Positions 13,621 through 64,000 of a stretch of 64,000 nt of DNA are shown in pieces. Under the pieces are notes generated by a model. It was given only the letters and a program-made list of their open reading frames with translations. It had not been told where the DNA came from and ran no database searches. Each line of letters opens with the position of its first letter. Positions within the stretch are counted from its first letter, which is position 1. The DNA lies in the NCBI RefSeq assembly GCF_026210795.1, contig NC_089436.1, positions 2,294,001 to 2,358,000 of the forward strand, written 5' to 3'. A program made the position numbers and the translations under genes. This DNA comes from Rhizophagus irregularis (lineage: Eukaryota).

Positions 13621-13784
13621 TCAAATGTGAGTTGTGAGGATCTACACAACTCTTTCCCCCATATGGGCTAATCGGACGCATTAGCCAAATGTCACATTTA
13701 AAACAATGTGATATGATTATATGGTTTTGTGAACGCCAATGATTTGATAAACTAGTAATACACAAACTTTTGTTTAACCAAAAA

Positions 13785-14470
13785 ATGAACACGACGCAGC
13801 CTTCACATACGCCTACTAGTAAATTTCCTTGTCCATTATGTCAATTTTTAAATAATAAAAGTACTTTATATACAAAGAATAGGCTTTCTTTACATCAGCG
13901 AAAATTTCTGGAATTCACTCTTGTTACGAATAGAAAAAAAACTTTCATACCATAGATCGGGAGGTGGTAATAGAAAAATAATATTTGAACCCTTTAATGA
14001 AGAATTATTTGTTAGGATATTCTCTCAGGAAGAAAACTTTACATTTATTTCTTACTTGAATATTATATAAATGTGTTTTTACTGGAGAACTAGGATATAA
14101 ACGCTTGGGTTCTTTATTTGATTGTGAAGATTGGGGAGAAAAAAAGCATACAAGTGGCACTAAAGCATATGTATTTATGGAAGATAAAGAGAGGCAAAAA
14201 GAAGTTTCTTTTGTTTGGTCTGACTATGTAGTTATTAGAAACCGAGTGGGTAAAGAACCTTTAACTTTACATAGTTTAAAATTAGTAGTTTTTTTTAATG
14301 TTTTAACTGGTTATTTTGTGCAAAATCAAGATAATATGTTGAATTTTTTGGAGGAGTGTGAAGATTGTATAGTTGAAAAATTGGAAGGTAAATTTTTTTT
14401 TGAAAAGTTCATTATAAATTTACTTATAACTTCAATTCACACTCATTAATTTATTATTTTATATAGGAAA
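13785..14470 (+). pseudogene. Partner gene of CATATG element (N-terminal C2H2-like finger plus unknown domain)
   Basis: FPCPLC...LSLHQR; GYKRLGSLFDCEDWGEKKHTSGTKAYVFM homologous to 61119-61677. Confidence 0.75.
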
Positions 14471-14599
14471 TTCTAATTTAGAAATATTCATTTAAAAAAT
14501 TATTATGTACATAGATTTTTTAGAAAATTGGTGTTTGTAAAAATTTAGAGAAAAATTGTTTAAGAAATATTAAAACTTTTAAAAAAATTCATTCTTTTA

Positions 14600-17144
14600 G
14601 AACAATTGTTTTCTGTACAATAGATTTTGGTATATTGTTCATCAAAAAGTAAAGTTGCCGGTTTTCATATGTTAATATATTGTGAACAACAGAATTTGCT
14701 TTATTTCCACCTCCCATTGTTGTTGCACCAAAAAATACCCAAACCTATAAACCCATATTAAATTGTAAACGTATATAGTAAGTTGTAATAATTAACAATT
14801 AATTACTTACATGCATATGGTTTTTTTTCTCAAGACTGGAAGTAGAAAAATGTTTGAATTGTAAATTTTTACTCTTCAAAATACGAAAAAATTGAGGAAT
14901 ATAATGTGCAAATATATGCATGTAAGGAGTAATATCAGTTGGATTGAACATTCCTTTTTTTTTTTATTAGCACTATTTGATTTTCCAATAGTTGGCTCAC
15001 AAAATTTTAAGATCCAACTTTTAGCTGCTTGTTCAAATGAATCGATCTCTTCTTCAGTAATATGATCTTGACGTAAAAATAAATATAAACGTAAAAATTC
15101 ATGCCATAAAAATTCCATTTTCCTACCATGATCACCAGAAACAGATCTAGTTACTTCAAAATTCTTTAGTACATTTAATTTTTCAACGCCATTTAAAGTA
15201 GTCCAGTCGTATTTACCTTTTGTTTTTGATTCATAAAATTGAAAATGAGTTATTCCAATACGATGCATTTCTTGTTCAATTAAAGTTGATGTACTTTTTT
15301 TAAATTGGTTTATGTCCTCCATAAGTTGATAGAAAAAGCATCCAAGTAAAACATCAGTAATTCGTAACATCACATGCAACTCATCAGGAATCCAATTTCC
15401 AGTTTTAATCATAGGAAATAAGCATGGATTTGCATGTCCTAATAATAAAATTTAACCAAATAATATAATATACATTTTTGAAATGATATTATTATTTACC
15501 TTTATTATTTCCAGTAATACTCCAAGAATGATTCATATCAGCACGCAATTCTTTTGAACACTCACAATATAAACAAAAAAAATTGGAATTTGCAGCTTTA
15601 ATTCCATAATTAACGCCATAAATTTCCAATCTCCAGAAAAAAATAACTCAACCGGCCAAATAATATTCTCACAATCCATATACCCATCTTTTATTTCATC
15701 TAACTCATTAATAAATTGAGATACAATGTATAACAGGATACTTAAAGAAATTTAAACGTAAATATTTAATTAATATAATTAATCATGAACTCACCAATAT
15801 TGCTTACTTGGTTTTAAAACTTCATCTTTTTCATTTAATAAACATACCGTAAACATTACATGTGAGTATTGATGAGTTACAATATGTCCATCTGTATCCC
15901 CAGGAGTCAAAATAGATGAAGAACCTTTTTTCCATATAGGAACTAAGATATCTAGAAGGGCTTTAATAGATCAAAAAGAACACAATCCATCTTGATTATT
16001 ATTACCACTATTACTAGAAGAACCAAGATCTTCTATATTATCATTTTCTCTTTCTTTACGTTTTTTTGATTGATTTGAAGGTGATGAAGGGATTTTAATA
16101 ATATAATCATATATAGGGATTAGAGAATTCATAACTTCATTAATATAATGTTTTCGCCCTTCAATACGATATTCTCTTTCAATTCTTGGATCAACCATTG
16201 CAAGACGTCGATATCCATCACGTGAAATCAAGCACTCATCAATTGCTCTTAGTATAGCATCACAATGAACCATAAAATCCAAATTATTATGAGATCGAAA
16301 ATCAATAACTACTACTTCTCCACCAATTTCAAGTTCAATTAACCTTAATTGACTATTATTAATGTTATTATTTTTCAAAATAATGCTTGATTGAGTTTTA
16401 AAATCCTTAGCTAGTAAATTTAAACGTCTATTCTGCTGTGATGTAGAAATTTCGGTATATGGACGTTTCCTATTTATAATAGGAGTATTTGTAATATTTT
16501 CTCTTGCTTCATAAGCAAGGTATGTTAAAGCCAAACAATAAAACTCCTGAAACTTTTGAGTTTGCTTTCATTCCAATAATCTGATTTTATCAATAAAAAT
16601 AACAATAGTTAAAATTTTTTTTATTAAATATTGGACAAATTACAAAAATACAAAATCTAAAAAATCAAAGCTTCTAATTTCAGTTTAAAATAACAATCAC
16701 CTTATAAAAATCATTTGCCACACCTGAAGATGATCGAGTATTTGAAATAATTTTAGATACGTTGTTATTATCTTTCCATTCAATTGAATATTTGATTTTT
16801 CCATTAGGCAAATAATTAGATTCACAGATAATTTGAAATCCTCCCAAAATTGTCTCTACTTTATATGCATTTGGAATTTTATAGACAACAGAATTCTTTT
16901 TACCACGCTGTGTATACTTAACGTTTGAAGGATATTCCCCCAATGATAAAATGTTGTAACTTCTTTCATGTCGTTTTCCATTAACCTCATAATAAATTAT
17001 TGTAATAAAAGAACTAGTTGGATAGTTACAAATAAAAATAGGTTCGTTATAATTTGGTGATTCAAATTCCTGATCGCTAATCCCTAAAAATAAATAAATT
17101 GCATATAAATTCACATAATCGCAAATAATTACTAAATTAATCAA
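14600..17144 (-). pseudogene. RAG1/Transib-like DDE transposase, multi-exon, decayed
   Basis: DGHIV..HVMFT, FFSGDWKF, FCLYC, DELHVMLRI, TPYMHIFAH, FSTSSLEKKNH in RAG1 core order. Confidence 0.75.
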
Positions 17145-18358
17145 AATAATTAATAATATAATCTTTTGTCTAATATTTATTATTTAAGTTATCTTCTTCA
17201 TTATAACTTCATAACTTATTAAAATAAAATGCGTACAACTTTAATTCTTATATAATAAAATACTAATAGACTTATTATTTCGTTATCTAATATTATACAT
17301 AAATAATATAATAATAATATAATAGAAATACTACCTGTTCAAGCCGTTTTTGATTTTCTTCCATATTCAAACTTAAGTGCTCATATTAAAGGTCGGAAAT
17401 TTTGCAATTTTGCTTTTACTACACATTAAAATAACTTTTATTTAGTATAAAGTTTGCTGTCACGTGTACCTAAAACCAATTCCCAACCAATTCCCGCCTC
17501 AATAATTGATATTAGAGAGAGTCTAAATCTTCACGTTCTAATTTGCCAATCATAATTTATTTGTTATTTTGTTACACAAAATTACATATATACTTCTATA
17601 ATATCACATGTTTATTACTTAATGAAATACGTCAAATCTGCCCATATGCAATTTTTGAAAATACTAATAAATTTTCTTGAAATTTTTGCTTGAAAATTTC
17701 TAAGTGCTCGTTAAATAAATTAATATTTCCCTAGTTGCTTTCCTCTTTACTGAGCTTTATACTATATATTTTACCGCCACCACATCCTGAAGTTTTGGCT
17801 TCTTCTGGAGATCGCCCGTTATCTCCTAATAACGCTTCTGACATGCCAAATAAACTAACACGTAATGTCTCTGCTGATGATATGAACGTTGACATAACTT
17901 CTCCCTCTGTTCCTGCCTCTGACCCTAAACCCAACGTTCCTTCTGATCTTCCTGTTAATAGAGTTCCTGTTATAACTTAACCTCTTCCTACTGACACGTC
18001 TTTAGAGTCTTCAATTCATGCCCATCCCCTTCCTGGTTCTACAAACCCTCCAAATAATGATAAGGGTAAATCTGTGGCCTTTGACGTATCTGTATGCCAA
18101 GCAACCTTTCCCTGATGGTGATGCTGCTGCTATCAAATCCTCTCCTTCCAGATTTTATGCTGCAGCATATCTTCATGACGCGCCTGTCACGTTCAAAGAA
18201 AAATTTACCACTAACTGCGCCATGTGTGATGAAGTGGACAGAGCTCTCTCCCGATATTCTTCTTATAGTTCGCGTGCTCATTGTAAAAAATCAGGAGACA
18301 ATAAAAGAATCCTTGTTTTCTTCTTTATTTAAGACGATCATTCCGCATGCGTCCAATC

Positions 18359-19857: not shown

Positions 19858-21643
19858 AAACTCTTTCCTGAATACATTTTTTACAAATATTTCTGCGTAA
19901 TAATTTTTTTTAAAAAATAATCTCTTTATTAAATTTTATTACATAAATATAAAAATGTCTATGGATAAGAGCCAAACACCAAACGAAGCAGCTTTAGACT
20001 TCGTTTCCAAGTTTAACGAAATTTATTTTCAATCCTTTACACACCACTTAAGTTCTTTTGTACAGGACGTTTCCTCAAGGACTTATTTGAAAAAAACCCC
20101 TCAGTACCTAAGGATAAAGCCCAGTTACTGATACAGAAATTTGGCGAGACAGCCAACCCTGCGAACTTCACTTCACAAGCCCAAGCTACGAATATACAAC
20201 CCACCACCCTTTCGCTAATATTTTCTATAGCGCTATATGCTGCGTCCAGGTCTTGGGATAATTTTTCCGCCCAATTATTTTGCGAATTTGGCGATATGGG
20301 TGATGATGATGATGACGACGAAGATGAATCTCAGAATACTGATGATTATCTGATAAATATGTCACCTTTGCTACTTGATGAAGATGATTTAGTAATGACT
20401 CTGTTGATCAAACTGTAATACCTGAAAACTCCCGGAAGAAAGATAAACAAAAGGCGCGTGTTACAGCTGATAAACAAATTACGAACCAATCAACGAAGGC
20501 AAAACCTGATGTGAAAACATCAGCCAAAAATTCCCATAAGGGAAAGAAATCATCCGAACCAGAAGCTACACAGATACTGACAGGATACGAAACTGTTGGA
20601 GAGGAGCATGAGCGAATCTGAGACATAATAGTTTACGATATCCCGTATACCTGGGACCTGCAGAAAATTATAGCAGAGTTAAAACTATGATCAAGTGTTC
20701 AGTTAAACGCCAGCACAAGTATCAGACTCTTAGAGTCAAGATAGCACTTTCCTCCTTTAGCCTTCCCCAGTTTAATAAATATTGGACGACAGACCTGGGA
20801 GGTATACCTGTTAGATGGTTCCCTGCGAGTTGGACTTTACGAGAAAGAAAACAACGTGAAAAGCTCCAAGCCATTATTCATGACATTCCGGAGGATATGA
20901 CAATGGCTACCTTGTGGATGGACCATAAACCATGTGAATTTTTAATGAAGTGTGGTGCTAGCTCATTTAAAATAATTCAAACAAGTAAAGGAATATGCCA
21001 CAGTTTTTCGTACCTAATGGTAAGGAGTTGAAATGGTGTCGGCACTCCATTCCTACCTTGAAGAAAGCACAATGTAAACCGAAGGCTAAAAATACACTAA
21101 ATACGAAAAATTCAGGTAAGTCTGACAAGAATTTAGACAGTAATCAGCCTAAGAAGAAGGATAAACCTGCATCCTCAAACAAAGTCTAAAAATAATAACC
21201 AGGAGGAGAAATACCCGAATACTCAGAAGAAGGCAAAGAAATCCTCAAAGAAAAAGGGTAATAATAAAGATAACAAGGCGGTTTTAGCAGAAATTTTAAC
21301 TTTATTACAGAAACTAGTTTAGCCTATGCTTTAATTAGCGGTTTTACGAATTTCAGAATTGTATTATTTTTAGGATAGAACATGTTTATGTGTTGTACCA
21401 CAATTTCTTGGATAGAGGACTTGTCCTCTCCACTTTTTTTCCCTCTCCTTTTTTTTACCCAGTGTGTTCGCCTGGACTGTTATTGGACGTGGTAGTAGTG
21501 CAGGTCCTTTTTTTTTCAAGAAGTTCGGGTTGGCTTCCAGCTTCTCTGGTTGTCGATAGTAGATCTTAGTTAGGTTGTACTATATAGTCATGCCTTTGTA
21601 TATTTCTCTGCCGACTTCACATAAAATAAATAAAAATAAATAA
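19858..21643 (+). mobile_element. ORF1-only non-autonomous retroelement, copy 1
   Basis: 18-bp TSD ACCTGTACAGTC(AC/GT)GTCG at 19840-19857 and 21644-21661; TAAA-type tail; single decayed ORF 19955-21322; highly similar to 26960-28882. Confidence 0.85.
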
Positions 21644-21650
21644 ACCTGTA

Positions 21651-26959: not shown

Positions 26960-28882
26960 TTTTTTTTTATTTATTTTATGTGAAGCAGGCGGGGAATACA
27001 GCGAGGGATTGATTACAAGTAATACGACCCAAAAAAAGCCCACCATCGACAACCAGAGAAGCTGGAAACCGACCCTAACTTCCTAAAAAAAAAGACTGTA
27101 CCACTATCACGTCCGATAGAGGTCCAGGCAAGCACACTGGGTAAAAGAAAAAAAAAGTGGAGAGGACAAGTCCCCTTTTCAAGAAATCGTGGCACTACAC
27201 ATAAACATATTCTATCCTAAAAATAATACAATTCTGAAATTCGTAAAACTGCTAATAAAAGCATAGGCTAAACTAGCTTCTGTAATAAAGTTAAAATTTC
27301 TGCTAAAACCGCCTTGTTATCTTTATTATTACTCTTTTTCTTCAAGGAATTCTTTGTCTTCTTCTGAGTATTCGGGTGTTTCTCCTCCTGGTTATTACTT
27401 TTAGAGACTTTCTTTGAGGATATAGAATTATCCTTCTTCTTAGGCTGATTACGATCCAAATTATTGTCAGACTTACCTGACTTTTTCATATTTGGAGTAT
27501 TTTTAGCCTTCGGTTTACTTTGTGCTTTCTTCAAGGTAGGAATGGAGTGTCAACACCATTTCAACTCCTTACCATCAGGTACGAAAAACTGTGGCGTATC
27601 TAAGGCCCTTAGTGTGGTCTCCCAATTCTCGAAATAGGCCACAAGTTTCCTCCTTCCTTTACTTGTTTGAATAATTTTAAATGAGCTAGCACCGCACTTC
27701 ATTAGAAATTCACATGGTTTACGGTCCATCCACAAGGTAGCCATTGTCATATCCTCCAGAATGTCATGAATAATGGCTTGGAACTTTCACGTTGCTTTCT
27801 TTCTCGTAAAGTCCAACTTGCAGAGACCATCTAACGGGTATACCTCCCAGGTCTATCGTCCAATATTTGTTAAACTGGGAAAGGGAAAATGAGGAAAGTG
27901 CTATCTTGACTCGAAGAGTCTGATACTTATGTTGCCGTTTAACAGAACATTTAATAGCGTTCCCCTAAAGTTTTAATTCTGCTAATATTTTCTGCAGGTC
28001 CCAGGTATACGGGATATCGTAAACTATTATGTCTCGGATTCGCTCAAGCTCCTCTCCGATAGCTTCGTATCCTGTCAGTATCTGTGTAGCCTCCGGTTCA
28101 GATGATTTCTTTCCCTTATGGGAATTTTGGGCTGATGTTTTCACATCAGGTTTTGCCTTCGTTGATTGGTTCTTGATTTGTTTATCATTTGTAACACGCG
28201 CCTTTTGTTTATCTTTCTTCTGGGAGTTTTCGGGTATTACAGTTTGATCAACAAGGGTCATTACTACATTAGGCATTGATGGAAGCTTGATAGGTACTGG
28301 ATTTGGTGGTTTTTGGAATTTTTGGCGTATAAGATCATCTTCTTCAAGCGGCAGATGTGATGCATCCATCAGATAATCTTCAGTATTCTGAGAATCATCA
28401 TCGTCATCATCATCGTCAACACCCATATCGCCAAATTCGCAAAGGAATCGGGTAGAAAAATTATCCCAAGACCTGGATGCAGCATATAGCACTATAGAAA
28501 ATATTAGTGAAAGGGTAGTAGGTTGTATATTCGTAACTTGGGCTTGTAAAGTGAAGTTCACAGGGTTGGCTGAGTCGCCAAACCTCTCTATCAGTATCTG
28601 GGCTTTATCCTTAGGTACTGAGGGGTTCTTTTCAAATAAGTCCTTAAGGAAACCGTCTTGTACAAAAGAACTTAAATGGTGTGTAAAAGTTTGAAAATAA
28701 ATTTCGTTAAATTTGGAAACGAAGTCTAAAGCTTCTTCGTTTGATGTTCAGCTCTTATCCATAAACATTTTTATATTTATGTAATAAAATTTAATAAAGA
28801 GGATTATTTTTTAAAAAAAATTATTACGCAGAAATTTTCGTAAAAAATGTATTCGGGAAAGAGTTTTTTTTTTTTTTTTTTC
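26960..28882 (-). mobile_element. ORF1-only non-autonomous retroelement, copy 2
   Basis: 13-bp TSD TGGCCTACTTCTC at 26947-26959 and 28883-28895; A-rich tail at 26960; ORF 28768-27268 with DIIVYDIPYTW, SFKII, LKWC. Confidence 0.9.
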
Positions 28883-29019: not shown

Positions 29020-29673
29020 CAACTCGAAAAAAAAAATTCTGGCCTGAGCCAGAATAAGCTAAACAATAAAAATTTTGGCTCAAGCTAAAGTGAGCTGAGC
29101 CGAGCCATGAAAATCATAGCTCGAGCCAAGCTAAGCTCGAGCTTTATCTTCACAAAAACGTTTCGCAATATTTTTTATTGAAGCATTGAAATAAACGTTG
29201 CGAAACATTTTTTTTAATATAATATAGTGAAAAAAATGTTTTCACAACGTTTCTTTACTAAAGAATTTAAAAAACGTTTCTTTCTAATATACCATAGTGA
29301 AAAAGACGTTTTCGCAACATTTCTTTACTAAAGAATTAAAAAAAACGTTGTGAAATGTTTTTTTCTAATATAATATTGTGAAAAAAACGTTTTCGCAATA
29401 TTTTTTATTAAAGAATTAAAAAAATGTTGCGAAATATTTTTTTCTAATATAACATAGTGGAAAAAACATTTTCGCAACGTTTCTTTACTAAAGAATTAAA
29501 AAAAATATGATAACTCAAGCCAGCTCAAGCTTTTTGAGCCGAGCCTATTACCGGCTCAAGCTCTTTTCAAGCTAGCTCGCGAGCCACTAAGCCAATTTAA
29601 TCGTGGCTCAGTTCGGCTCAGATTGAAAAGCTCGAGTCAGCTCATGAGCCGGCTCGGCTCATGTGAAGCTTTA
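29020..29673. mobile_element. Non-autonomous hAT-type element (GAGCC repeats plus ~75-bp array), one end truncated
   Basis: Reverse-complement homologue of 45614-55930; end ...CATGTGAAGCTTTA. Confidence 0.8.
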
Positions 29674-32890: not shown

Positions 32891-33289
32891 CATGTATGGT
32901 TTGTTTATTATTTTAAAAAGTTGTGAGAAAGAAAATCAAACCGATGAAATTCACCTCCTAAATAATGATTTTATGTAAAAATTTAGTAATAAAATTAAAG
33001 TGAAAATCATTATATAAAATTTTAAGGTGAAAATCACCCCGATAAAAATCACCTGAGGTGAAAAATAAATTAATTCTAATTTTATATTCACCAGTGGTTA
33101 ATTTAAAATTAATTCACCAGTAATATGATAATTTTAGTTTTATATTAATTTTGTTTGTATTACGTTTTACAAATTCATATACATAAATAAAAATTTTTTT
33201 ATGAATTTTTTAAACTGTAACTTTTTTTCCAAACATACTATTAAACCCATATAACTCAATTTCATAAATTAAAAATGAAATTTATAGAG

Positions 33290-34215
33290 AAATTAGTATT
33301 TTTTATAATACTACTAACTGTTTAATTCCTAAAGTTTTATATTTTTTATTTAATAACTTTAGAGTGTAATTTCACTACTTTAGTCAAGTGAAATCAATTT
33401 CTTTTATTAATTAAAAGTTGTTCAACAGAGCCAAAACTACTTGTATATTATTTTTTATAAGTGTAGATATAATACATATAAAGAATCCCATATTTTTCAT
33501 AATGGTACTAACTTTTAAAATTATTTTTTTATTTACTGTATTACTTCAAAGTGTAATTTTACTACTTTAGTCAAATAAAATTGACTTTCTAAATTAATTG
33601 AAAATTATTCAGTAAAGTCAAAACTACATGTATATTAATATTCATGAGTGTAAATATAATATATATGGAGAAACCAACATTTTTCATAATGGTACTAACT
33701 TTCAAATTTTTTTTTTCTTTAGAGAGTAATTTCATCACTTTAGTCAAATGAAATTGATTTTCTAAATTAATTGAAAATTATTCAGAAAGGTCAAAACTAC
33801 TTGTATATTAATTTTTATGGATGTATGTATAATATATATAGAGAAATCTATATTTTTCATAATAGTACTAACTTTTGAATTTTTTTTTCTGTTTATTAAC
33901 TTCAGCACATAATTTCACCACTTTAGTCAAATGAAATTGACTTTCTAAATTAATTGAAAATTGTTCAGCAAGGTCAAAAAAACTACTTGTATATTAATTT
34001 TTATGGGTATAGGTATAATATATATGAAGAAATCTATGTTTTTCATCATGATACTAACTTTCAAATTTTTTTTTCTATTTATTAACTTTAATGCGTAATT
34101 TCACCACTTTAGTCAAATAAAATTTACTTCCTTTATTAATTGAAAGTTGTTGTGCAGTATAAAATCTACTTAATATTTGTAAGATTTATCCTATTTTTTA
34201 TAATAATACTAACTT
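33290..34215. repeat. Tandem array of about five ~178-bp units
   Basis: Recurring TTTAGTCAA at ~33379, 33566, 33739, 33922, 34108 and AAAACTACTTGTATATT. Confidence 0.9.
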
Positions 34216-34558
34216 ATAAATTATTGTATAATATATTATTAGATTTAAACTATATATTTTATATAAATATTTTTATTAATAAAATTATTAGTTTTTTCAA
34301 AATAAAACAATTTAAATTTTAATAAATTATGTAATAAATAAACTTTATCTTGGGTGAATTTCACCACTGGCAAGCGTTAAAATCACTCTTTTTAAAAATA
34401 TAAAATTACTACCATTTGATACATCTTAATAAGAAGAATCTAATAAAAATAAAATTGTCTTTCTACAAATATTATGTGACAGGATAACTTACAAAATCTA
34501 AAAATTTATAAATTAATATAACTTTTTATTTATCAATTTTATTATTATCATTAAATAC

Positions 34559-35312
34559 CACAAGTTGAAAAGTTAGCTGATTGGTGACCGATTGGTGACT
34601 GATTAGCATTTTTGCCAAATATCATTACCAATCAGGCAGTTTGCTAATTTTTGATCCAGAAATCAGAAAAGGATAAATATAGCTCATTGGAATCATCTCA
34701 ATAAGATGAATTTAATGGTAGTAAAATTGCATTTCTAGGATTAATAATTAATAAAAAATTAAATAAAATATAAATAATATATTTTTATTTTATATTTTAC
34801 TTAATTTCTCATCAAGTATTAATTTTAAAAATGTGATTTTACTACCATTAGATTCGTCTTGTTGAGATGATTCCAATGAACTATATTTCATCCTTTTCTA
34901 ATCACTGGATTAAAAGTTAGTAAATGCCTGATTGGTGATAGTATTTGGCGAAAATGCCAATCAATCACTAATAAGGTTGTCTGCCTAAACTTCTCCAAAA
35001 TTCTATGATTAGTTTTTCCAAAATTTTACTATAGTTTTATTATAGTTTTGGCAAGATTTTGGCAGTTTCAGCATTTATAATAAGTTTCGTCAGGTTTCGC
35101 TTTTCTCCAGAGTTTTACTAACTTTTTAATAAGACTTGTATATAGTTTCAGCAAAGTTTTGCCATTTCGGCATTTTGCCAACTTGCCAAAATCCCCTAGT
35201 TTCTCCAGCAACCTTAATTACCAATCAGTTACCAATCAGTTACCAATCAGCTACCTGATTGGTGACTGATTGGTGATTGGTTGATACCTGATTTTTTACT
35301 TTTTAACCTGTA
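34559..35312. mobile_element. CACTA-like MITE with GATTGGTGA repeats, copy 1
   Basis: CACAAGTTGAAAAGT...ACTTTTTAACCTGTA; homologous to 52538-53037. Confidence 0.8.
34972..35216. mobile_element. hAT-type MITE, TAAGGTTGC family copy 2 (reverse orientation)
   Basis: Reverse complement of 7527-7770; degenerate 8-bp TSD. Confidence 0.85.
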
Positions 35313-43537: not shown

Positions 43538-46500
43538 ATTTTTATAGCTTTGTTTTTTTATTTGCTTTATTATTATCATGTATTTTTTTTATGTATATGT
43601 ATCATAATTACTATGTGGCTGTAACAGGGTGGACATTCTCATATTATCACATTATATTATTACCGATCATTTTGCCGATCATTTGTTAATTATCTATTCG
43701 ATATTATCACATAATAAAACTACCATTATGGATTATTTTTTGCAAATTCGGCTATACATAAAACTAAAATAATTTGAATTGACCATCTTAAAGGTCAAAA
43801 TGGTCAAAATTAGCCGAAATTATATTGTAGTATGTGATTATTATAATTAATAAATAATATGAAAATTCAAAATTTACAATCTCAATATATAGTGATCAGA
43901 TTTAAATGAAACATATACTATTAGATTCATCTCATTGAGAGAATTTGAATGGTTGTAAAATTATTGCAATCAGATTGATAATAACAAAGCTATTACATTT
44001 CAAAATTTTATATTATTTAGTCATTAATCATTATGTGATATAATGTAATTTTAGTGAACTTTTAATTTGACTTTTGACCTTTAAAGCCATAATATTTTAG
44101 CTTTTGGAGTTTAATTTTAGTTTCATGTATGAATTTTACATTAAATAATTTTTATTAATGGCAGCTTTTTATTTATAATGCATTTATTAAAAATAATTTA
44201 AATAAATAAAAGAAAGTTTCTATCTATATTTATATTACATATATTTACATATTGTTGTAGCTTAGCCATATATTGTACTGAATTTCATATTGATTATCTA
44301 TATTTTGTTCTGTTTACTTTAAAAGAGTTTCAATATTTTCATCTTCATAATCTTTATTTAAATCATCATCCTTTGTAATTTCAGGTATTTCATTATCCTT
44401 TAATGGCTTAAACAATCTTTTATTTAAACTAGTAATATTTGTTTTAATATTTTTTGACAAATAATTAAAGCAATACTTACATTTTTCATTAAGTATACTT
44501 AAACATTTTTTATGGTAGCTATGCCCACATATTAAAACAATATTTGATAATGAATCTGTAATATTACAATTTTCTGCATCATAAAATTTATCTTCAGTTG
44601 GTGGATTTGAAGTACTCCAAGCTAGTGGAAGAACTTTTATATTCACAATTCTATTATTAAAACTTGGAAATTCAAATGTTTCATTACCGTGATAGTAAAA
44701 ATAATGAAACCTTTTTCTCTAAAAATATTAACTTAACTTTTGAAATATTTGTATTTCTTGTATTAATAAATGCTTTTTTAAACCCTTTATCATTTCTTTC
44801 AATATCAATAATTTTTGCCTTTTGAATAATTTGGTTATCTGAATTTAACTCAACTGTTTGATATTTAAGAGAACTATAAAAATTTTCAATAAAATAGTCA
44901 TTAAATATTGGTAAATAATTTTTTAAAATATCAATAATTGGATGCTCATTTAATGTTCAATAAAACACATCACTTAAAAATATAAGTGGTGCTTTATTAT
45001 AATTATGTCTTTGTAATTTTTGAAATAAACCCCAAATTTTTACAATACTTTCTAGATATCCTTTATAAAATCTATATCTAAAAAGTTTTGCATATATTTC
45101 TAAAGTAAGTGGTAAAGAATTATCTAATAAATCTATTATTATTAAATATTTTATATCTTTTATATTTTTAAAATGATTTATAATTTTTATAATTAAATTA
45201 CGAATATTTTTTCATCCATAAAAAGTAAGATTTAATATAAAGTCAATAAGTCTTGGCTTTGGTTTTTGTACTAAAATTTTTTTTTCTCTGAAAAGATTAT
45301 GATATACCATTATTTGAAATAATATTTCTCTGCTATTTAAAAAAACATGAAGTGGCCCAATCATAGAAATTAAACTTAATATTTGAGAAGAAATTCCAGA
45401 ATTATCTTTTTTATTAAGTCTTAGTGTAATAGCTTTTCTTAAATTTATTTGACCAGGCCAATCACAAATTGTAGGAATTACATAATTGTTTAAATAATCT
45501 TCTTGTTTTATTTTTTTAAATGTAGTAAATAAAATATTTGCAGATTCAATATAATCTTTTGTATTATGTAATGTGTAATGGATGCAAAATAAAATCTACT
45601 AATTTGCTATTTTTAAAGTTTCACATGAGTCAAGCCATCTCACGAGCTGGCTCGAGTTTTTCAATCTAAGCTAAGCTGAGCCACAATTAAATTGACTCAG
45701 TGGCTCGTGAGCCAGTTTGAAAAGAGCTTGAGCCAGTAATAGGTAGAGGTTTCTGAATGTCAATCATGATGGGTCAAGTAACCCATCAAGGGTTGACTTT
45801 CATGAATTTTCAGGTCAGGAATTAATTTGAATTTGAATTTAAGCTTGGAGTCAAACCTTGCGGAGGTCACTATATAAAATTTTATTTTATGGAAACTAAA
45901 ATATCTGATATATACTTCTCAACGTAATTGATTCATTAATTACGGTATTATATCCCTGTCATATTAATTACGGACTTACGGTGACACAATTGAAATTATG
46001 GCTGATCATATGATTTTTAAAAAACTGAATATGGAGATCAATAAATTTTATCAATCTCATTTTATTTTTCTTCGGTAAAATAATTTCTTTTTAATTTTTT
46101 TATGAAGAGCGTTTACTAACGTTTCTTTAATAACTTTTTTTTTGTAGATTTCGGATTGCAACTCAGTAGGTATGGCTTTAAAGGCGGGATATATTTCTTT
46201 TTTATATATAAGAATGTTTATTAACGTTCTTTAACTTTCTTTTATAAGTTTTAGACTAGAATTTGGAATTAAAGATGAGATATTAGGTAAGATTTTAAAG
46301 AGAGTGGAAGAGGTGGGAGCGGGATTATTATTTTTAATAATATATAAGAACGTTTAAGTTATTAATGTTCTTTAACTTTTTCTTGTAGTTTTTGGACTGC
46401 AATTTGTGGGTGTAGTAAAGGGAAAGGAAGCAGAATATTATTCCTTTTATATATAAGAACGTTTACCAATATTCTTTATCTTTTCATTTGTAGATTTCAG

Positions 46501-50499: not shown

Positions 50500-50890
50500 A
50501 TGGCAAACATTAAAAGAATTATGTTGTGTATTTGCGGTAATGGTTTTTTATTAAATTTTATTGCAATTTGTTCTTTTTATTTATTTTTAATTTAAAATTT
50601 AGGTTTTTTATAAAGCAACTGAAGAAATGTTAAAGTCAAAATTTATTACACTTTCATCTTTCATTCCAATATATAATGTTTTACTTGATCATTTAGAAAA
50701 TCTTCTTGATAAAAATAATAAAGACCATTATTGTCCAATTTCAGAATTAAGATCTGCTATAAAAAAAGGATACGAAAAACTTCAAATATACTATTCTAAG
50801 ACAGATAAATCAATTGTATACCAATTGCAACAAGTAAAAATTAATTTTTAAATCTTATATTTATATTTTTGATGATAATTCAGATTATTA

Positions 50891-51412
50891 CATCAGGAAA
50901 TTTGTTTAGGCATAATTTAGTGTAATATTTCGGAGGTGGTGTAAAATTTCGAAATATTACACTAAAAACGTAATATTACAAAAGTTTACGCTCTTAAATT
51001 TGAATAATAATAGTAATTTAAGAATATCTCGCTATCTACTGATCCAATCAAGACGATCTATAGCTCATTGGAATCAGCTCATCAAGTCGAATCGAATGGT
51101 AGTAAAATCATATCTCTACGTTCGATAGATGACTTTCTATTAATTTAAAACTTTATTGCATACTATAGAGTGTTCTATCAACTGTAGAAATGCGATTTTA
51201 CTACCATTCGATTCGTCTTGATAAGCTGATTCCAATGAGCTATAGATCGTCTTGATTGGATCAGTAGATAGCGAGATATTCTTAAATTACTATAATTATT
51301 CAAATTTAAAAGTGTAAACTTTTGTAATATTACGTTTTTAGTGTAATATTTCAAAATTTTACACCACCTTCGAAATATTACACTAAATTACGCCTAAACA
51401 AATTTCCTGATG
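50891..51412. mobile_element. Fold-back MITE with ~220-bp near-perfect arms
   Basis: TA-CATCAGGAAATTTGTTTAGGC...GCCTAAACAAATTTCCTGATG-TA. Confidence 0.9.
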
Positions 51413-52537
51413 TACTTATTTATATGCATTTTATCATTTTTTAGTTCTGGATTCAAGAATAAAACTAAAATATTATAAATAACAAGAATGGGAAGAAAAG
51501 TATATTAATGAAGCAATAAAAATTATTAAGAAGCAGTATAATGAAAATTATCAAGATGATTCATTTAATAATGATCTTAGAGCTCAGAAAATTGATTTGA
51601 ATAATTTTTTTAGTCTTTTTGAAATGGGTGATGATAATGATTCTTCTAATAAAGATGAATTAGAAGAGTATCTTTGTAAACCTGCAGTTAATTTTAAGAC
51701 AGATCCACTATAATGGTGGAAAGTAAGTAAATTTTTTATAATTAATTTATTAGCATCTAATACTTTAAATTAATCTAAATGTAACTATATTATTATAGGC
51801 ACACAAAGCTACCTATCCGCATCTGGCAAAGATGGCACGAGACTATTTAACGATCCTAGGTAAGTATTTATTTGAATTTTTTATTTAACTTTTTCTAAGT
51901 TCTAACTTTTATAATTTTTAATAATAGGGACTAGTGTACCAGTTGAACGAATATTTTCTGGTGGATCTGATTTAATAACAAAAAGATGCTCTAGCTTGAA
52001 ACCAGAAACTATTCAGATGTGCATGTGCTTAAAAAATTGGATAAAATATCTTCAATAAATTAATAAATGGAGATAACTGAGCTGATCACTTTTTAAGATT
52101 TTATTAATTATTATAATGATAATTTTTCAGAAAATTTTCTATTCATATTTTTTCTTTCATAACATTAATTTAGATTAGTAATTTCTTTCTATTTTTTTAA
52201 ATTTATTAATTATTATGTAATAGCCAATACAAGACAAATAAAATCAAACTGTGAATTTTAATTCTTAAATTTATTATAAATTTATATATGTTATTTAATG
52301 TGTAAATTATAAAATCAATTAAAAAAATATAAATATGTTATAATTTTTAACTTACAGATCGGCTGTAGTGTACCTGATCTAATCTGAAATATTAACCCAT
52401 GGGTTAGGTCAGGTTAAAACTTTTTATAATCAGGTTGACATTTAACCTGATCAAAAAAAATGAAATGTGTCGAGGTCAAGCAATTACCTGACCTAACCTG
52501 ACCCATTTGGAGGCTCGTAATAGGGGTACCCAGCTCA

Positions 52538-53037
52538 CACGAGTTGAAAAGTAAATCGATCGCAATCAGGTAGCTGATTGGTGACCGATTGGTAACTAAT
52601 TGGCATTTTCATTTATAAATACTGCTATTAATCAGGCAATTTGTATTAACTTTTGATCCAAATGTATTAAAAGGATTTAAATATATTGGAATCGTCTCAA
52701 CAAGACAAATCTAATGGTAGTAAAATCACATTTCTAGGATTAATATTTGATGAGAAATTAAGTAAAATATAAAAATAAAAATGTATTATTTATATTTTAT
52801 TTAATTTTTTATTAACTATTAATCCTAAAAATGCGATTTTACTACCATTAGATTCATTTTGTTGAGACGATTCCAATGAGCTATATTTCATTTTTTCTGA
52901 TCACTGGATCAAAAGTTAGCAAACTGCGAAAATACCAATCGGTCACCAATTAGTCATCAATTAGTCACCAATCAGTTACCTAATTGGTGACCGATCGGTG
53001 ACTGATTAATGCCTAATTTTTCACTTTTTGACCTGTA
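52538..53037. mobile_element. CACTA-like MITE with GATTGGTGA repeats, copy 2
   Basis: CACGAGTTGAAAAGT...ACTTTTTGACCTGTA, 3-bp TSD TCA. Confidence 0.85.
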
Positions 53038-53099: not shown

Positions 53100-53810
53100 A
53101 TAAAAAACATTGTGAAAACATTTTTTGTATAATATTATATTAAAAAAAAATGTTTTGCAACGTTTTTTTTAATTCTTTAATAAAAAATGTTGCAAAAACA
53201 TTTTTTTCACAATATTATATTAGAAAAAAACATTTTGCAACGTTTTTTTGATTCTTTAGTAAAAAATATTGCAAAACCATTTTTTTCATAATATTATATT
53301 AGAAAAAAACATTTTACAACATTTTTTTTAATTCTTTAGTAAAAAACATTGCAAAAACATTTTTTTCACTATATTATATTAGTTTGCACCATTTTTTTTA
53401 ATTCTTTAATAAAAAAATGTTGCAAAAACGTTTTTTGTATAATATTATATTAAAAAAAATGTTTTGCAACATTTTTTTAATTCTTTAATAAAAAATGTTG
53501 CGAAAACGTTTTTTGTATAATATTATATTAAAAAAATGTTTCACACCATTTTTTTAATTCTTCAATAAAAAATGTTGCAAAAACGTTTTTTTAATTCTTC
53601 AATAAAAAATGTTGCAAAAATGTTTTTTTAATTCTTCAATAAAAAATGTTGCAAAAACGTTTTTTTCACAAGAAAAAATGTTTTGCAACATTTTTTTTAA
53701 TTTTTTAATAAAAAATGTTGCAAAAACGTTTTGTTCATAATATTATATTAGAAAACGTTTTGCAACATTTTTTTAATTTTTTAGTAAAAAATGTTGCAGA
53801 ACATTTTTCT
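53100..53810. repeat. ~75-bp minisatellite (GTTGCAAAAACGTTTT core)
   Basis: About nine degenerate units; shorter array of the same unit at 29150-29505. Confidence 0.9.
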
Positions 53811-53862
53811 GAAGATAAAGCTCGAGTCTGGCTTAGCTCAAGCTATGATTTTCATGGCTTGG

Positions 53863-55794
53863 CAGGACTCTAAAGAATACATATACAACTCAGATCCAGA
53901 CCCAAAATTTTAATATAATTTTATACACCTAATTTTATTAGAAGCTTTATATAAAATCATCACATAAGCTCAAATTTTATTATAAATTATACAATTATAA
54001 TCTGAGTTTATATAAAAAAAAATTTTTTAAAGAAAAATTTCAAATAAATTTTATTAAAAATTTTAATAAATATTATTAAAAATTATTTAAAAATTCTAAC
54101 AAATACTTAAAAATTTTTTTTAAAAAAAATTATTAAAAAATAACTTAAATAAAATTTTTAAATAAAATTATATGTTAAAAATTTTAAATACCTTATAGAT
54201 ATTGATGCCCAATATGTATAATATAATAAGTTTTATGCAAAAATTTGGATGTAAACCCACCTACCAAAAGTATCTGGGCACTTTTAAAAAATGACTATTA
54301 AATCACATTATTTCGATATCCAGTGATCAGAATTTAATGATTTATGATTCATTGAATTCATCTAATCGAGACGCATCTAACTGCAGTATTTTCAAGTCTG
54401 TAAATTCAATAGATCAGAAGTTATTATTAAATATCTAAAAATAGTAAAATGCAAATAACCTTTGATCCATTAATCCTAAAGACATGAAAATAATAGATAC
54501 AATGTACCTTAAACAGACAAATCTAATGAGTCATATTTCATCTTACTAGGTTTAATATGGAAGAAAACGTTATGAAATTTGTATTTGCTAAATTTTTAAA
54601 GATGAAAAATGAATTACTTCATAAAGTTAAATCATATTATTTCAATAATCAGTGATCAGAATTTAATTATTTATGATTCAATGAATTCATATTATCAAAA
54701 TGCATCTAATTGCATTATTTTTATGTTTTTAAATTGGATGGATCAGATGTTATTCTCAACAGTAAAATGCAAATAATTCATTTTTTATCTTTAAAAATTT
54801 AGCAAATACAAATTTTATAATGTTTTTTTCCATATTAAACCTAGTAAGATGAAATATGACTCATTAGATTTGTCTTGTTAAAGTACATTGTATCTATTAT
54901 TTTCATGTCTCTAGAATTGATCAAAAGTTATTTGCATTTTACTGTTTTTAGACATTCAACGATAACTTCTGATCTATTGAACTTACAGATTTGAAAATAC
55001 TGCCATTTTTTAGAAGTGCCTGAATACTTTTGGCAGGTGGGTCATGGGTGTATACTACAAAATAAAAGAAAATACATTTTGTTATATATCTCACCACTCA
55101 GTGATCGTAAAAAGATAAAATACAGCTCATTGGATTTGTCTTGACAAGACGAATTGAATGGTAGTAGTTTCGTATTTCTAGGTGTGATAGTTGTTAAGCT
55201 ATACCACACATCGGCACTTTATATTTTCGTCTACTGTACATTTTTACATTTTATCACATAACTCGGCATCTATCATGCCTAGAAATATGAAACTACCACC
55301 ATTCGACTCAATATATTGAGACGAATCTAATAAGCTGTGTTTTATTTCTCTACGATCACTAGATGCTAAGATATGTAATAAAATGTATTTTTTTAATTTT
55401 ATAAATGAATTTTAAAAAAATTTCTTCATTTTTATTAAAAAAATGTCTTTAAACAAACTCTTAAAAACTTCTTAAACAAAAAACAATTTCTATTAAAAAA
55501 TATTTCAAGTGTTTTTTAAAACAAATAAAAAAAAATATTTTAAAAATTTTTTAAACAAAAAATAAAAAAAACTTTAAAAAATTTTAAACGTATATAAAAA
55601 AAATTTTAATATCTGTTATATAAAATGAAAATTTTACTTATTGTAAAAATCATTATTGTTATACAAATAAAATCTGACTTTTTGCGTAACTGTTATTTGA
55701 TTATATAATTTCGAATATATAACTTATTAAGAAATTACATAATAAGTTTATATAAAATTGGATTCCAGTATTATATGTATTCTTTGAGGTCCTG
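53863..55794. mobile_element. Non-autonomous TIR element (CAGGAC ends)
   Basis: CAGGACTCTAAAGAATACATATA / TATATGTATTCTTTGAGGTCCTG; apparent 6-bp TSD GCT(T/C)GG judged against the uninterrupted host copy near 29095. Confidence 0.8.
54254..55044. mobile_element. Nested TIR element
   Basis: ACCCACCTACCAAAAGTAT...ATACTTTTGGCAGGTGGGT; approximate TSD TGG(A/G)TGTA. Confidence 0.8.
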
Positions 55795-59713: not shown

Positions 59714-61118
59714 GTTCCAATATATAATTCATCAAAAAAGCCAATTAAATTTTCATCAGCTGTTTCAAGCATTTTCTTAAAAGCTGTTGGATCATAAATA
59801 GGCTTTTGGTTTAATTTATGCTGATTATTGTAAAGAATATTGGACATTTTTATTATCTTATCACTTAAACTAACTTCATTTGGAATTGTTATATGCTCTA
59901 AAATTTCTTAAAAATCCAATTTAAGTTGTTTCAATTCTTCTTCACTATAAAAAACATCATTTCTTAATATATAAGAATAATTACCAACTTGTAAAATATT
60001 ATTGTCAATTTGCTTTTTTCTTTGGAATTGGTGCTTTATATTCTTCAGTTTGTAAATACTCGGGATTTTTATTAGTTTTTTTTTTACATATACTACAAAT
60101 TTCTGCAAATTCATCTAATTCTAATACTTCAATTAATCTCTTTAGAACTTTTTTAAGATTAAGTTTTTTTGACTTTATATTTGCATTTTTTGATTGTGTT
60201 TTGTAAATATCATGTTTTAAATGAGAACAAGATTTATTATATTCAAGATTACGAGTTTTATTCACAATAAATTTGTTAGAATGAGTTTGGCATAGCTTCA
60301 TGCCAACTAAAATAATTTCTTTTTTTGTTACTGGAACATTTGTATTCTTGGTAATTGTTCTAATTATTCCCTTGCAATCAGTAGAAAAAAAATTACAGAT
60401 ATTTAATGTGGTTTCTATTTCCATTTTTAATTTAAATTTTAAATAATTTATTTTTCAAAAATAAAGAATTTTTTATAAAAAAAATTAGAAACAACTAATG
60501 ACAAATTTAGTTATGTAAATTTTATTTGCTATTAAAATTCATACAAAGTCTGAAAATTAATGTTTTCAAAAATCTAAAAATTAACTAAAACCCGAAAATG
60601 AGCTGAATTTTAATAATAATTAGAAAATTAAATTGTTTTAATGATATCATGACAACCAGTGATTAGAATTTAATGTTTTGTAGCTTGTTAGATCCATCTC
60701 ATCAAGACGATCATTTTGATAGTAATTTCATAAATTTTTACATCAAATTGATTGAGAAATTGCATTTTGAAAATTTCTATTTATTATATAGATTATAACC
60801 ATATAATTGCAAGTATAAATTTAGCCATAACTTCTTAATTACCTAAAATTATGAATGATTACTTCAGCCATTAATTTTAAATCAGTTAAACCATATGGAC
60901 GGATTCGACTCAACAGCATCACCCCCGTAACAAATAAAATGCGATCACACCCCATCAGAATCATATCACATTATATGTAAGATTTGATTGGTTTTGAAAA
61001 CAATTATATATTACTTGAATTAGAAATTGCGTTTTGTGCGTCAGTTTTGTTAAAAATTAAAAATGCGAAAATGAATTTTTTTACTTTATACGTACGTTTT
61101 ATATAATTTTGTTTTACG

Positions 61119-61677
61119 ATGCCATATACTTGTTTTCTTTGTTCTGAAAATACTCCTAAAACTTTCTCATCTAAAAACTCACTTTTTATTCATGAAAGAA
61201 CTGTTCACCCAAATAATAAAATAATACCTCACTCGCGCAGGTTAACTTCTCCATCTTTATACGATATTCACCACTTTAAACATTCTTTTATAATGCAGTT
61301 AAAGGCACGCTTACAATTTCATAGAAGTGAACCTCGAGTAAAAACTTTAAAAATGGGGCCCTTTTCTGAAGGACTTTTTATTATTTTATTCTACAATGAA
61401 CCAACTTTTCAATATTCTCCAGCAAAAAGAATGTATACTTGTAAGTTTGAAGGTGGTCAAGGATATGAACAATTAGGAATTCTTTTTGATAATAAAAACT
61501 GGGGTAGTAAAAAGCGGCGAACAGGGGACATGTGCATATGTTTTAATGCAGAACGCGCAAGAAACTTATGATGTTACTTTCTGTCGTGTGTACAAAGATT
61601 CAAATATGCAGTTACGTTGTGGTTCTATGCGTTTTGAATTTAATGTTGATGTAAGAGATTTTGTAGAAGGTAATTGA
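61119..61677 (+). pseudogene. C2H2-finger partner gene (one frameshift near 61525)
   Basis: YTCFLC...SLFIHERTVH; GYEQLGILFDNKNWGSKKRRTG then TCAYVLM in the next frame. Confidence 0.8.
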
Positions 61678-61799
61678 AAATTTTATATATGTATAATAAC
61701 TTAGAAGATTTTGGAATGTAGAAAAAAAAATTTAGAAATATAGTTTATAAATTTAAAATTATAGAAATAAAGTATGAAAAGATTATTTTTTATTTACAT

Positions 61800-64000
61800 T
61801 ATTTTCCATTTAATGAAAAACTGAAGTATTTACATAGGTTCACAACGCTATTATATTGTTCATATATATTAAATGTATGATTACACCATTAGGTTTTAAT
61901 GTCCATTGTTTTTCGTGTATATTTAATTGGAGTATTATGTATCTGATAGAACAATTATCGGTTTTCATAATATAGAATATCATGAATTACAGGTTTTTTT
62001 GATTTTCCTCCACCCATTGTTGTTCCTCCAAAAAATAGCCGTACCTAAAACAAGAATATGTTAATAAATTATTTAATCAAAAAATGCTAAATAAAATATT
62101 ACAAATTGTGAATTTAATTAGTTTAAATGTATTTACCTGTTGATGATTTTTCTTTTCTATACTTGATGTTGAAAAATGCCGCAATACCATTCCTTTTTGT
62201 TTTAGATATCGCATAAATTGAGGTACATGTTGAGCAAGCACATGCATATAAGGTGTAACGTCTGTGCGCAAATACATTCCTTCTTGTTGATTAATACTAT
62301 TCAGATCACCAATAGTAGGACGACAAAAATCACGAATCCATTGTTTTGCATCAACTTCAAATTGATTGATTTTCTCATCTGTTATAGACTTTTGACGCAT
62401 AATTTTATAAAGATTATAAAATTTACGCCAAAGGTATTCAATATCTTGCCCTCTTGCAGCTTTTCGTCCTTCAAAAAGATGTTTAATCTGAAATTCTTTC
62501 AATATTTTTTCCTTATCGTGCACCCTATGCGTTATGTCCATTCCCATTTTCCATTTTTCGTAGTAGGAGAATAAAACTCAAAATGAATATGTAATCTTTT
62601 CATTTCTGCAATTATCAATGGTTGTGTGTTATTTGCAAAATCTTTTTGTTTAACAAGTTCATAAAATAGACATTGAAAAAGCACATCAGAAATTCGCAAC
62701 ATAAGATGCAATTCATCTGTGATCCAATTATTTTGATCAATTTCTTGAAAAAGCATTGTATTTTTACATCCTATAACAAATATTAATTTTTTTAATTTTT
62801 AATTTAATATTTTAAATAAAAAATACAATAAAATCAAATATATACCACGTGTATTTTTTGAGTTTAACCATACTTTATCCATATCATATCTCTCATCTTT
62901 ATGATAATTACAATATAAACAGAAGTAATTGGATGTTGCCGCATTAATTCCTAAAACTAATGCTACGAATTTCCAATCACCTGAAAAAAAAAGTTCAATC
63001 GGCCAAATTGTATTATTTGAATCTTTATATCCATTTATCTTTAATTGTTCAAGTTCTTGTGAAAATTTGGCCGATACAATTGATAAAGAATTATAAGATT
63101 CCTTTCCTATATATAAACAAATACTATGTACAACAATATTATAAATAAATCATGTATAATAATTAAAATTGACAATATATACATAATACCTGTATTGATG
63201 AGCAGGATTCAGAACGCCCTCTTTTTCATTAAGAATACACATAGTAAGCATCACATGCTTTTGCTTTCGCCCTACATTTCTCCCATCTCCACTCAATTTT
63301 ATATTAATCTTATCTCCAACTTTTAAAATAGGAGGTGTTGAAGTTGTTAAAATAGGAACTATAATATCTAATAGAGATATAATAGATCGGTATGCACCAT
63401 TGCCCACATCATCATCATTAAGTTCTATTCCACTAATATCTTGTTGATTTTCATTATCATTATCATCATCAAGATTAACACTTTGCAAATTAAATGGTTT
63501 AATTGGAATAAGGGAATTCATTATTTTTGTGATTTCATTTCGGCGTTTTTCAATTACATGTTCTCTTATTAAATTTGGAACAGCTTTAGCTAATCTGCGA
63601 TAACTATTACGCGAAATTAATATTTCATCACAAGCACGGATAATTGAATCTATGTGTTGTGTAAAATCAGTTACATTGTCAGGATGGAAATGTAACTCTA
63701 CAATTTCACCATTAATTTTAAGAACTATAGCTTCAATAGTTGCAATAATTTCTTCAGATGGTGAAGTAAATTTATTTTTTTTGAGAATTGACATAGTTTG
63801 TGTTGCAATTTCCTTTCCAACCATTGAAATGCGTTTATTTTTTTGTGATTGTGATGTAAGTTCAGTAAAATATCATTTGCGATTAGCAGGTGTAATAGAT
63901 TGTTGTGGCTGACAAGCAATAATTTTGCGAATTTGATGTAAAAAACCTATATCTAAACCAAAAAGGGTTGTACCAGAAACTCGTGAATTGGGTTTATTAC
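61800..64000 (-). pseudogene. RAG1/Transib-like DDE transposase, multi-exon, 5' part outside the window
   Basis: KLSGDGRNVG, FFSGDWKF, SNYFCLYC, DELHLMLRI, TPYMHVLAQHVP, FSTSSIEKKNH. Confidence 0.8.

Follow-up and report, generated by a model that had tools for sequence, protein, structure and literature searches.

Two copies of a two-gene transposon in the window

We analysed a stretch of 64,000 nucleotides from Rhizophagus irregularis, a fungus that forms arbuscular mycorrhiza (NCBI RefSeq assembly GCF_026210795.1, contig NC_089436.1, positions 2,294,001 to 2,358,000 of the forward strand; the whole stretch is hereafter called the window), in which two copies of a DNA transposon are found. 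In both copies a small gene on the plus strand (the partner gene) faces a multi-exon gene on the minus strand (the transposase gene), the stop codons of the two facing genes being about 90 and about 210 bases apart in the two copies. Copy 1 occupies 13660-17648 (3,989 bp) between imperfect terminal inverted repeats (TIRs); its two ends pair as inverted repeats at 18 of 23 bases, a level that no pair of random window ends reached in 20,000 draws. Copy 2 begins at 60892 and continues past the edge of the window, its right end lying outside. The hexamer CATATG stands at 13660, at 17643-17648 and at 60892. The layout described in the initial annotation, with CATATG-type TIRs enclosing two facing genes, was confirmed in both copies, and the order TIR, small gene, convergent spliced transposase gene, TIR was found in addition in two complete relatives on metagenome contigs. 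The element is a real two-gene transposon, with a transposase of the predicted fold of RAG1, the cutter in antibody gene assembly, and with a novel partner. Both window copies are disrupted by frameshifts or stops and are dead, movement being possible in trans only. A single 50-kb element spanning both copies was considered and rejected. The 43 kb separating them is unrelated sequence, consisting of unrelated repeats and genes.

Linkage of the two genes and recent mobility

By a scan of metagenome contigs with the partner, 9 loci were obtained out of 209 candidate stretches. The transposase was located downstream on the opposite strand, tail to tail with the partner, in 8 of these 9 loci, and the ninth contig ends inside the partner. 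Since the scan patterns were taken from the copy 2 subfamily, all the 9 loci belong to it, and the linkage was tested in one direction only. Copy 1 is a single instance of a second subfamily, in which the pairing is kept at an identity to the copy 2 subfamily of about 35% for the partner and 36-47% for the transposase.

Two of the elements on metagenome contigs are complete (L001, 4,137 bp; L002, 4,149 bp). From the first C of the TIR, L002 is 99.87% identical to L003 (L002:218-2454, L003:139-2454), and the left flanks of the two are unrelated; L001 and L007 share 95.6% identity, which extends to the final G of the TIR, and one identical partner protein of 239 aa is carried on 11 contigs. The presence of near-identical elements at different insertion sites indicates that the unit moved as a whole, recently in some lineages, and the L002/L003 element is a candidate for a recently active family. 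Layout and termini are common to these elements and the two genes are inherited together, both under purifying selection: the ratio of nonsynonymous to synonymous changes (dN/dS) was 0.18-0.25 in 7 of 10 partner pairs (one pair was identical and two had too few changes, 0.51) and 0.09-0.20 in 19 of 21 transposase pairs.

Predicted fold of the transposase

As the transposase genes in the window are broken, a relative was folded instead, the Entrophospora candida protein P0014, which over the length of the two copies has an identity of 28-40% to each. With its AlphaFold model (106 sequences; pLDDT 88.3, pTM 0.79) as query, Foldseek placed RAG1 first (E 3e-14) and BbRAG1L and HzTransib next; 49 chains were found at E <= 0.001, and those among the matches listed are all chains of these three. 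Comparison by VIA-align gave Z scores of 24-27, up to 27.1, against RAG1 (root-mean-square deviation, rmsd, 3.8-4.4; about 452 residues aligned), 22.9 against HzTransib in its hairpin-forming complex (rmsd 3.6, 404 aligned) and 22.6 against BbRAG1L (rmsd 4.8, 451 aligned), followed by the P element at 12.3 and Hermes at 9.2; after structural search of 48,161 representatives the ranking was as before, with RAG1, HzTransib and BbRAG1L above the P element and Hermes. The match begins at the DDBD of RAG1, reaches into the NBD in three PDB chains, and has a sequence identity of 12-15% in the structural alignments. The predicted domains of the model are DDBD, pre-RNase H, RNase H with a zinc-binding insertion, and CTD, preceded by an NBD-like basic helix. 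With a profile of the 106 homologues, the top PDB match was BbRAG1L (E 0.017), CxxC, H-x4-H and the final E being in register; RAG1 was missed by single-sequence and shallow-profile searches of PDB, and a Pfam scan of 14 window segments gave nothing significant.

The RAG1/Transib-type fold proposed in the initial annotation thus finds support in the Foldseek and VIA-align comparison of the predicted model of the relative. The series of RAG1-like motifs given in that annotation is all there and in the stated sequence, but it is a mosaic drawn from the two copies: the NBD-like and DDBD-like motifs as quoted are those of copy 1 (16471-16421 and 16228-16202), and the SGDG, H-x4-H and final-E motifs are those of copy 2 (63293, 62256 and 62166). 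In copy 1, comparison with P0137 shows that a short deletion has damaged the first-Asp motif.

Over residues 7-106 of P0014 the sole structural match was the FYR domain (Z 4.6, rmsd 4.0, 94 aligned). The domain had first been suspected at the transposase N-terminus from what we took to be its sequence pattern; neither a profile of 17 N-terminal sequences nor the Pfam families listed for the 106 homologues gave support for FYR at the level of sequence, and the FYR-like N-terminal domain is a lead, weakly indicated by the model. No Chapaev, CACTA or Plavaka structure is among the structural matches listed, and therefore the fold cannot tell the nearest branch within the CACTA-Mirage-Chapaev-Transib (CMCT) clade; we know of no solved structure for any of the three.

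The partner gene

Full-length partner proteins are about 185-255 aa in length and carry one N-terminal C2H2 finger plus a conserved domain of unknown fold. The partners of copies 1 and 2 are homologous, as seen with P0017, which is 84-90% identical to the copy 2 partner and 32-45% to that of copy 1 (E 3e-18). The copy 1 partner, of which 100 of 101 residues are identical to R. irregularis P0245, is frameshifted and has an internal deletion relative to intact relatives. A partner search gave 96 matches, falling into at least three subfamilies that are 35-48% identical, and every named match is from Rhizophagus or Funneliformis. The matches of 47 partner members cover 22 families, C2H2 included, with no kelch and no PHD; the partner profile found nothing in PDB and no RAG2 match, and Foldseek gave no match at E <= 0.001. 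In the Atlas the matches to the partner were its own cluster, of Mucoromycota, and generic C2H2 clusters. The AlphaFold model of the partner (pLDDT 44) is unusable past residue 32, and prediction of the P0001-P0017 complex, in which alignments were not used and the partner fold was uncertain, gave a score of 0.00. Homology of the partner to RAG2 was rejected after its small size, its one C2H2 finger and the lack of kelch and PHD matches; the prediction of a linked convergent partner other than RAG2 is supported by this lack and by the 8 of 9 loci.

A true RAG2 analogue of different origin, in which the partner would be a subunit required by the transposase, attaching to the zinc-binding insertion of the enzyme and permitting cleavage, so that the RAG1-RAG2 solution was repeated independently, appears improbable. 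The convergent linkage is tight in two distant subfamilies, as this explanation expects, and the spacing from the second Asp to the Glu is 248 in P0001 and P0014 (239-299 aa in intact rows) versus 254 in RAG1 by the numbering of the initial annotation, so that the insertion is about as long as that of RAG1, which holds the RAG2-binding helices (PMC9435367). Transposases of equal spacing occur, however, in animals, where a homologue of the partner was not found, Subgroup I Transibs keep the region without RAG2 (PMC9435367), and the partner is a small protein with a DNA-binding-type finger and with no propeller or PHD match in the 47 members.

One contig of run X19 (depth 7.7) matches the copy 1 partner with 0 differences and skips a 79-base GT..AG intron; that this run is RNA is a guess, and no run holding copy 1 is on record as RNA. 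If so, a copy whose transposase is broken still expresses the partner, as would be expected of a passenger or anti-silencing cargo, captured once by the Glomeraceae clade and kept for protection from methylation or RNAi or for host benefit, with no role in cutting. Fungal transposons of the CMCT clade often carry TET/JBP cargo (PMC12730594), and the named partner homologues are limited to Glomeraceae. This explanation is considered rather unlikely, for the partner keeps one position and one orientation in every locus of sufficient length, and it has no enzyme-like family match.

Termini, target site and subterminal motif

All of 10 ends open with CATATGG, and GC follows in 9 of them. The flanks of the three full copies are CC/CA, AA/AT and CT/CT, giving a 2-bp match in one copy and a 1-bp match in the other two, which fits a target site duplication (TSD) of 1-2 bp. 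Longer duplications gave no fit in these three copies (0/5, 1/5 and 1/5 matches for a 5-bp TSD; 1/4, 2/4 and 2/4 for 4 bp; 1/3, 0/3 and 1/3 for 3 bp), and a TA duplication outside the CA..TG ends was found in 0 of 3. No empty site of copy 1 was found in the 3 of 4 runs that were readable.

As CATATG is a palindrome, single insertions cannot separate the TIR from the target, and with no clean TSD outside the hexamer it could be argued that the hexamer itself (or TA or ATAT within it) is a duplicated target and that the true ends are GGC..GCC. We rejected this on the finding that L001 and L003 each sit in one unit of a local repeat, of which the empty unit is without CATATG, and which indicates that the hexamer belongs to the element. 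The site of L001 fits a 1-bp duplication, and elements of the CMCT clade normally end in CA..TG (PMC12730594); a duplicated CATATG target is accordingly held to be very improbable.

Repeats of a GTGAT-type motif are found near both ends, at distances of up to 90 bases. In each of the 4 right ends compared, which cover both subfamilies, the motif occupies position 42-46, and it is present in 6 copies in L001 and 9 in L002, versus about 1 in shuffled sequences (as many in 0 of 1000 shuffles each).

Spread and classification of the transposase

A 240-residue piece of the large gene gave 15 matches, all hypothetical proteins of Glomeromycota. With a profile of 12 homologues, 3,029 representatives were found at E <= 0.001; names were examined for 20 of the 150 listed, by which 9 clusters were named, 7 of them with an organism: Nematostella (2), Argopecten, Clytia, Lithocolla, Cetraspora and Scutellospora. 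The relatives in Nematostella, scallop and Lithocolla match at E values of about 1e-46 to 1e-55 and that in Clytia at E 5.5e-63, and hence the transposase lineage is not only fungal. The separate fungal lineage proposed in the initial annotation holds as to the Glomeromycota setting of the element, but not for the transposase as a whole. The Pfam RAG1 profile misses this wider family, with which the family tree of RAG1 thus gains a poorly sampled branch. In a quick, unfinished tree of 35 rows from the family alone, with no outgroups, a branch with support 94 keeps the named Glomeromycota rows to one side, as another with support 99 does for the cnidarian rows. Weak searches with two short patterns gave no relative among 41 candidate stretches in viral contigs and none among 57 candidates in prokaryote genomes. 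A subgroup of the family (P0148, P0168, P0181 and P0192) carries a C-terminal CCHC zinc knuckle, which the fungal members are without and which recalls the tail variation among RAG1L and Transib.

A closer relation to Transib/RAG1 than to Chapaev, as first suggested, could not be shown: DUF1280 matches 7 of the 106 homologues (best E 2.7e-5) and RAG1 matches 4 (best 1.3e-3), all weakly, and three Glomeromycota proteins scanned singly gave neither. The Atlas lists the clusters of the family itself first, one of them with DUF1280 in 16% of members, and then RAG1 at 0.95. Pfam families of Plavaka or CACTA are not among the matches listed for the 106 homologues. Of three features of the CMCT clade, two are present, namely the motifs as defined in PMC12730594 and the CA..TG termini (10 of 10 ends); for the third, a TSD of 2-5 bp, the three full copies gave a 2-bp match in one and 1-bp matches in two. 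Given the weak sequence similarity to both Chapaev (DUF1280) and RAG1, we take the element to be a CMCT lineage that has probably gone undescribed.

The likeness to RAGL/ProtoRAG elements comprises the RAG1 core fold from DDBD to CTD in the predicted model, the partial NBD alignment in three PDB chains, the DDE triad, the CxxC and H-x4-H zinc ligands, and the order TIR-gene-gene-TIR with convergent genes. The element differs from them in that its partner is not the kelch plus PHD protein of RAG2L, that the N-terminus is FYR-like instead of zinc-finger/RING, that the first and second Asp are about 80 aa apart versus 108, and in the identity of 12-15% in structural alignments. From RAGL and Transib alike it differs by T as the third base of the TIR in 10 of 10 ends, instead of the CAC that resembles the heptamer of the recombination signal sequence, and by the lack of a 5-bp TSD. 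With Transib it shares the fold (HzTransib, Z 22.9, on the predicted model), an NBD-like basic segment and the length of about 4 kb; on the other hand, it has two genes, several introns, CATATGG termini and a TSD of at most 2 bp, and its insertion between the second Asp and the Glu is longer than that of HzTransib.

With Chapaev/Chapaev3 the transposase shares three motifs, C(2)C, LH and H(4)H (also common to RAG1L), the weak DUF1280 matches and the occurrence in cnidarians; the differences are the lack of CAC..GTG termini and of a 3-4 bp TSD, and the second gene. A Chapa zinc finger is not evident at the N-terminus, as judged by the number of Cys ahead of the first Asp, which is 1-7 in those Glomeromycota rows that carry a name. 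PlavakaB and ESTA are similar in being fungal, with CMCT motifs and short TSDs; ends of PlavakaB start with CAT, and ESTA was recognised by similarity to RAG1 (PMC12730594, Kojima 2025). The termini described there for PlavakaA and PlavakaB, TGT..ACA or CATCA..TGATG, are not those found here, the TA duplications of ESTA are seen in 0 of 3 full copies, and the cargo here is not TET/JBP.

It is quite possible, at somewhat less than even probability, that the transposase belongs to a divergent Chapaev or Transib family already catalogued in Repbase, Dfam or a curated R. irregularis library, the partner alone having gone unremarked. Both Transib and CMC-Chapaev are listed, without structure, among the repeats of R. 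irregularis (PMC11075540), and the family may therefore sit, undescribed, in that library. The DUF1280 matches point in the same direction, as PMC3985635 equates DUF1280 with Chapaev and groups Chapaev with RAG1; so do the three motifs called characteristic of Chapaev. Since TIR and TSD are reported to be labile within Transib (bioRxiv 10.64898/2026.08.26.747230), the mismatches of terminus and TSD lower the likelihood of membership but do not exclude it. These mismatches (no CAC in 10 ends; neither a 3-4 bp nor a 5-bp TSD fitting the three full copies) nevertheless count against a catalogued family, together with the lack of DUF1280 and RAG1 matches in the three singly scanned proteins, the N-terminus that is FYR-like instead of Chapa-like, and the report in PMC5751038 (Muszewska 2017) that a RAG1 profile found no Transib in fungi. 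A search of the supplement of PMC9435367 for Rhizophagus, Glomus, Gigaspora and Nematostella found none of them. No description of the two-gene element was found in the literature searched; Repbase Reports, subscription journals and bioRxiv supplements may hold one.

Proposed mode of action

We favour, with fair but limited confidence, a two-gene CMCT transposon with a predicted RAG1/Transib core fold, of which the convergent C2H2-finger gene likely codes for a DNA-binding helper or a regulator of transposition. Judged by the fold, the element would work like a Transib/RAG transposon: a transposase dimer would bind the CATATGG ends and cleave by nicking and hairpin formation, as RAG1 and Transib do, and cut-and-paste insertion would follow with a very short stagger of 1-2 bp. 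The partner may bind the GTGAT-type sites that are repeated in subterminal position at each end, and may promote synapsis or counter silencing, a step that we regard as evenly balanced. Its role would then be that of TnpA for En/Spm or of the Myb protein for Harbinger, not that of a RAG2-like structural subunit; our preference for an end-binding helper or regulator over cargo and over a RAG2-like subunit is about an even call. A transposase together with a small accessory gene within TIRs is a feature of several known transposons, with TnpA in En/Spm, mudrB in MuDR and KolX in Kolobok as second genes, convergent in MuDR and Kolobok, and with a Myb protein in PIF/Harbinger. The partner is unrelated in sequence to these, and the RAG1 fold is unlike the transposases of Harbinger, MuDR and Kolobok. 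Since two-gene DNA transposons are otherwise common and a second gene is not special to ProtoRAG, the term 'ProtoRAG-like' of the initial annotation fits as a description of the layout only.

Several observations weigh against this favoured explanation. The 9 loci come from one subfamily, with two being near-identical, and are not independent. The protein folded is a relative at 28-40% identity, not that of the window itself, and the FYR match stands at just Z 4.6 without sequence support. The flanks of the three full copies do not agree on one TSD length. The GTGAT motif was selected after inspection of the data, copy 1 shows no significant enrichment of it (71 of 1000 shuffles), and both ends are also promoters, so that GTGAT could represent host promoter elements. 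The partner has just one finger, and its model is poor outside it. In a word-limited search the named partner homologues are all from Glomeraceae, with the transposase spread far wider, and most of the lineage may therefore work without the partner.

A broader alternative, which we consider doubtful and well short of probable, is an unrecognised superfamily-level branch beside Transib/RAG1L and Chapaev, spanning mycorrhizal fungi, nucleariid-like protists, cnidarians and molluscs, in which Glomeraceae would have independently recruited an obligatory partner and an FYR-like module, with a stagger of 1-2 bp. If true, it would offer a second natural experiment, still recently mobile, in the dependence of a RAG1-type enzyme on a co-encoded subunit. 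In the history of V(D)J recombination, the main step still to be explained is how RAG2 was acquired by a one-gene Transib-type transposase. A separate lineage with the predicted RAG1 fold, in which a different tail-to-tail partner is under selection, provides a comparison accessible to experiment, as to whether the partner acts as a subunit, as a helper that binds the ends or as an anti-silencing factor. If the partner is ordinary cargo, the value would be mainly in transposon classification. The finding also gives a name to part of the large unclassified repeat fraction in arbuscular mycorrhizal genomes, recently mobile copies included.

Coordinates and other features of the window

Table 1. 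Location of the parts of the two element copies in the window
Feature	Position	Strand	Evidence or remark
Copy 1 left TIR, ~23 bp, imperfect	13660..13682	+	18/23 vs right end; first 7 bases as in 10/10 ends
Copy 1 partner gene, C2H2 finger + unknown domain	13785..14495	+	homologous to P0017; P0245 match
Copy 1 partner intron	14388-14466	+	GT..AG joint in one run X19 contig, 0 differences
Copy 1 transposase gene, broken	14589..17361	-	tblastn to P0001, P0011, P0014; intron scoring; motif positions
Copy 1 transposase, predicted introns	14745-14810, 15439-15499	-	intron scoring
Copy 1 transposase, two less well defined predicted introns	from ~15794; near 16581-16700	-	
Copy 1 transposase, putative start codon	17361 (uncertain)	-	
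Copy 1 transposase, FYR-like N-terminal exon	~16701-17060	-	
Copy 1 subterminal GTGAT motif	17603..17607	-	position 42-46 from right end
Copy 1 right TIR	17626..17648	-	inverted-repeat match to left end
Copy 2 left TIR	60892..60914	+	homology to L001, L002, L003, L006 begins at this base
Copy 2 partner gene, ~185 aa	61119..61677	+	99% to R. irregularis P0016; dN/dS 0.18-0.19 vs 4 loci
Copy 2 partner, frameshift; splice donor	near 61526; 61670	+	donor placed as in copy 1
Copy 2 transposase gene, 5' part beyond window	61889..64000	-	70-93% to P0001
Copy 2 transposase, predicted introns	62045-62136, 62771-62845, 63124-63189	-	
Copy 2 transposase, premature stops; frameshift	63873-63875, 61955-61957; near 62517-62535	-	

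Other mobile elements and repeats are found in the window. The N-terminus of a Tc1/mariner-type transposase lies at 6663-7028 on the minus strand (HTH_SB, E 6e-12). A long inverted repeat pair, 19904-21440 and 27150-28819, with blocks 88-96% complementary, is located amid fragmented open reading frames (ORFs) like those of retrotransposons without long terminal repeats, and probably represents two opposed copies of a long interspersed nuclear element; a Pfam scan of ten proteins was negative for the two ORFs tried. Fold-back palindromes resembling miniature inverted-repeat transposable elements, with near-perfect arms and short loops, are present in at least five copies (34675-34888, 50884-51419, 52685-52877, 54383-55003 and 55066-55394). 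A tandem array with units of about 70-80 bp at 53101-53811 has an inverted copy 24 kb away at 29027-29504, and a separate array with units of about 187 bp occupies 33275-34222. Two fragmentary ORFs at 44314-45595 on the minus strand, one with a weak RING-finger match (E 3e-4), are possibly another decayed transposon. Two long ORFs at 38802-40518 on the plus strand make up a host gene, in which a cyclin domain (PF08613, E 3e-11) was identified.

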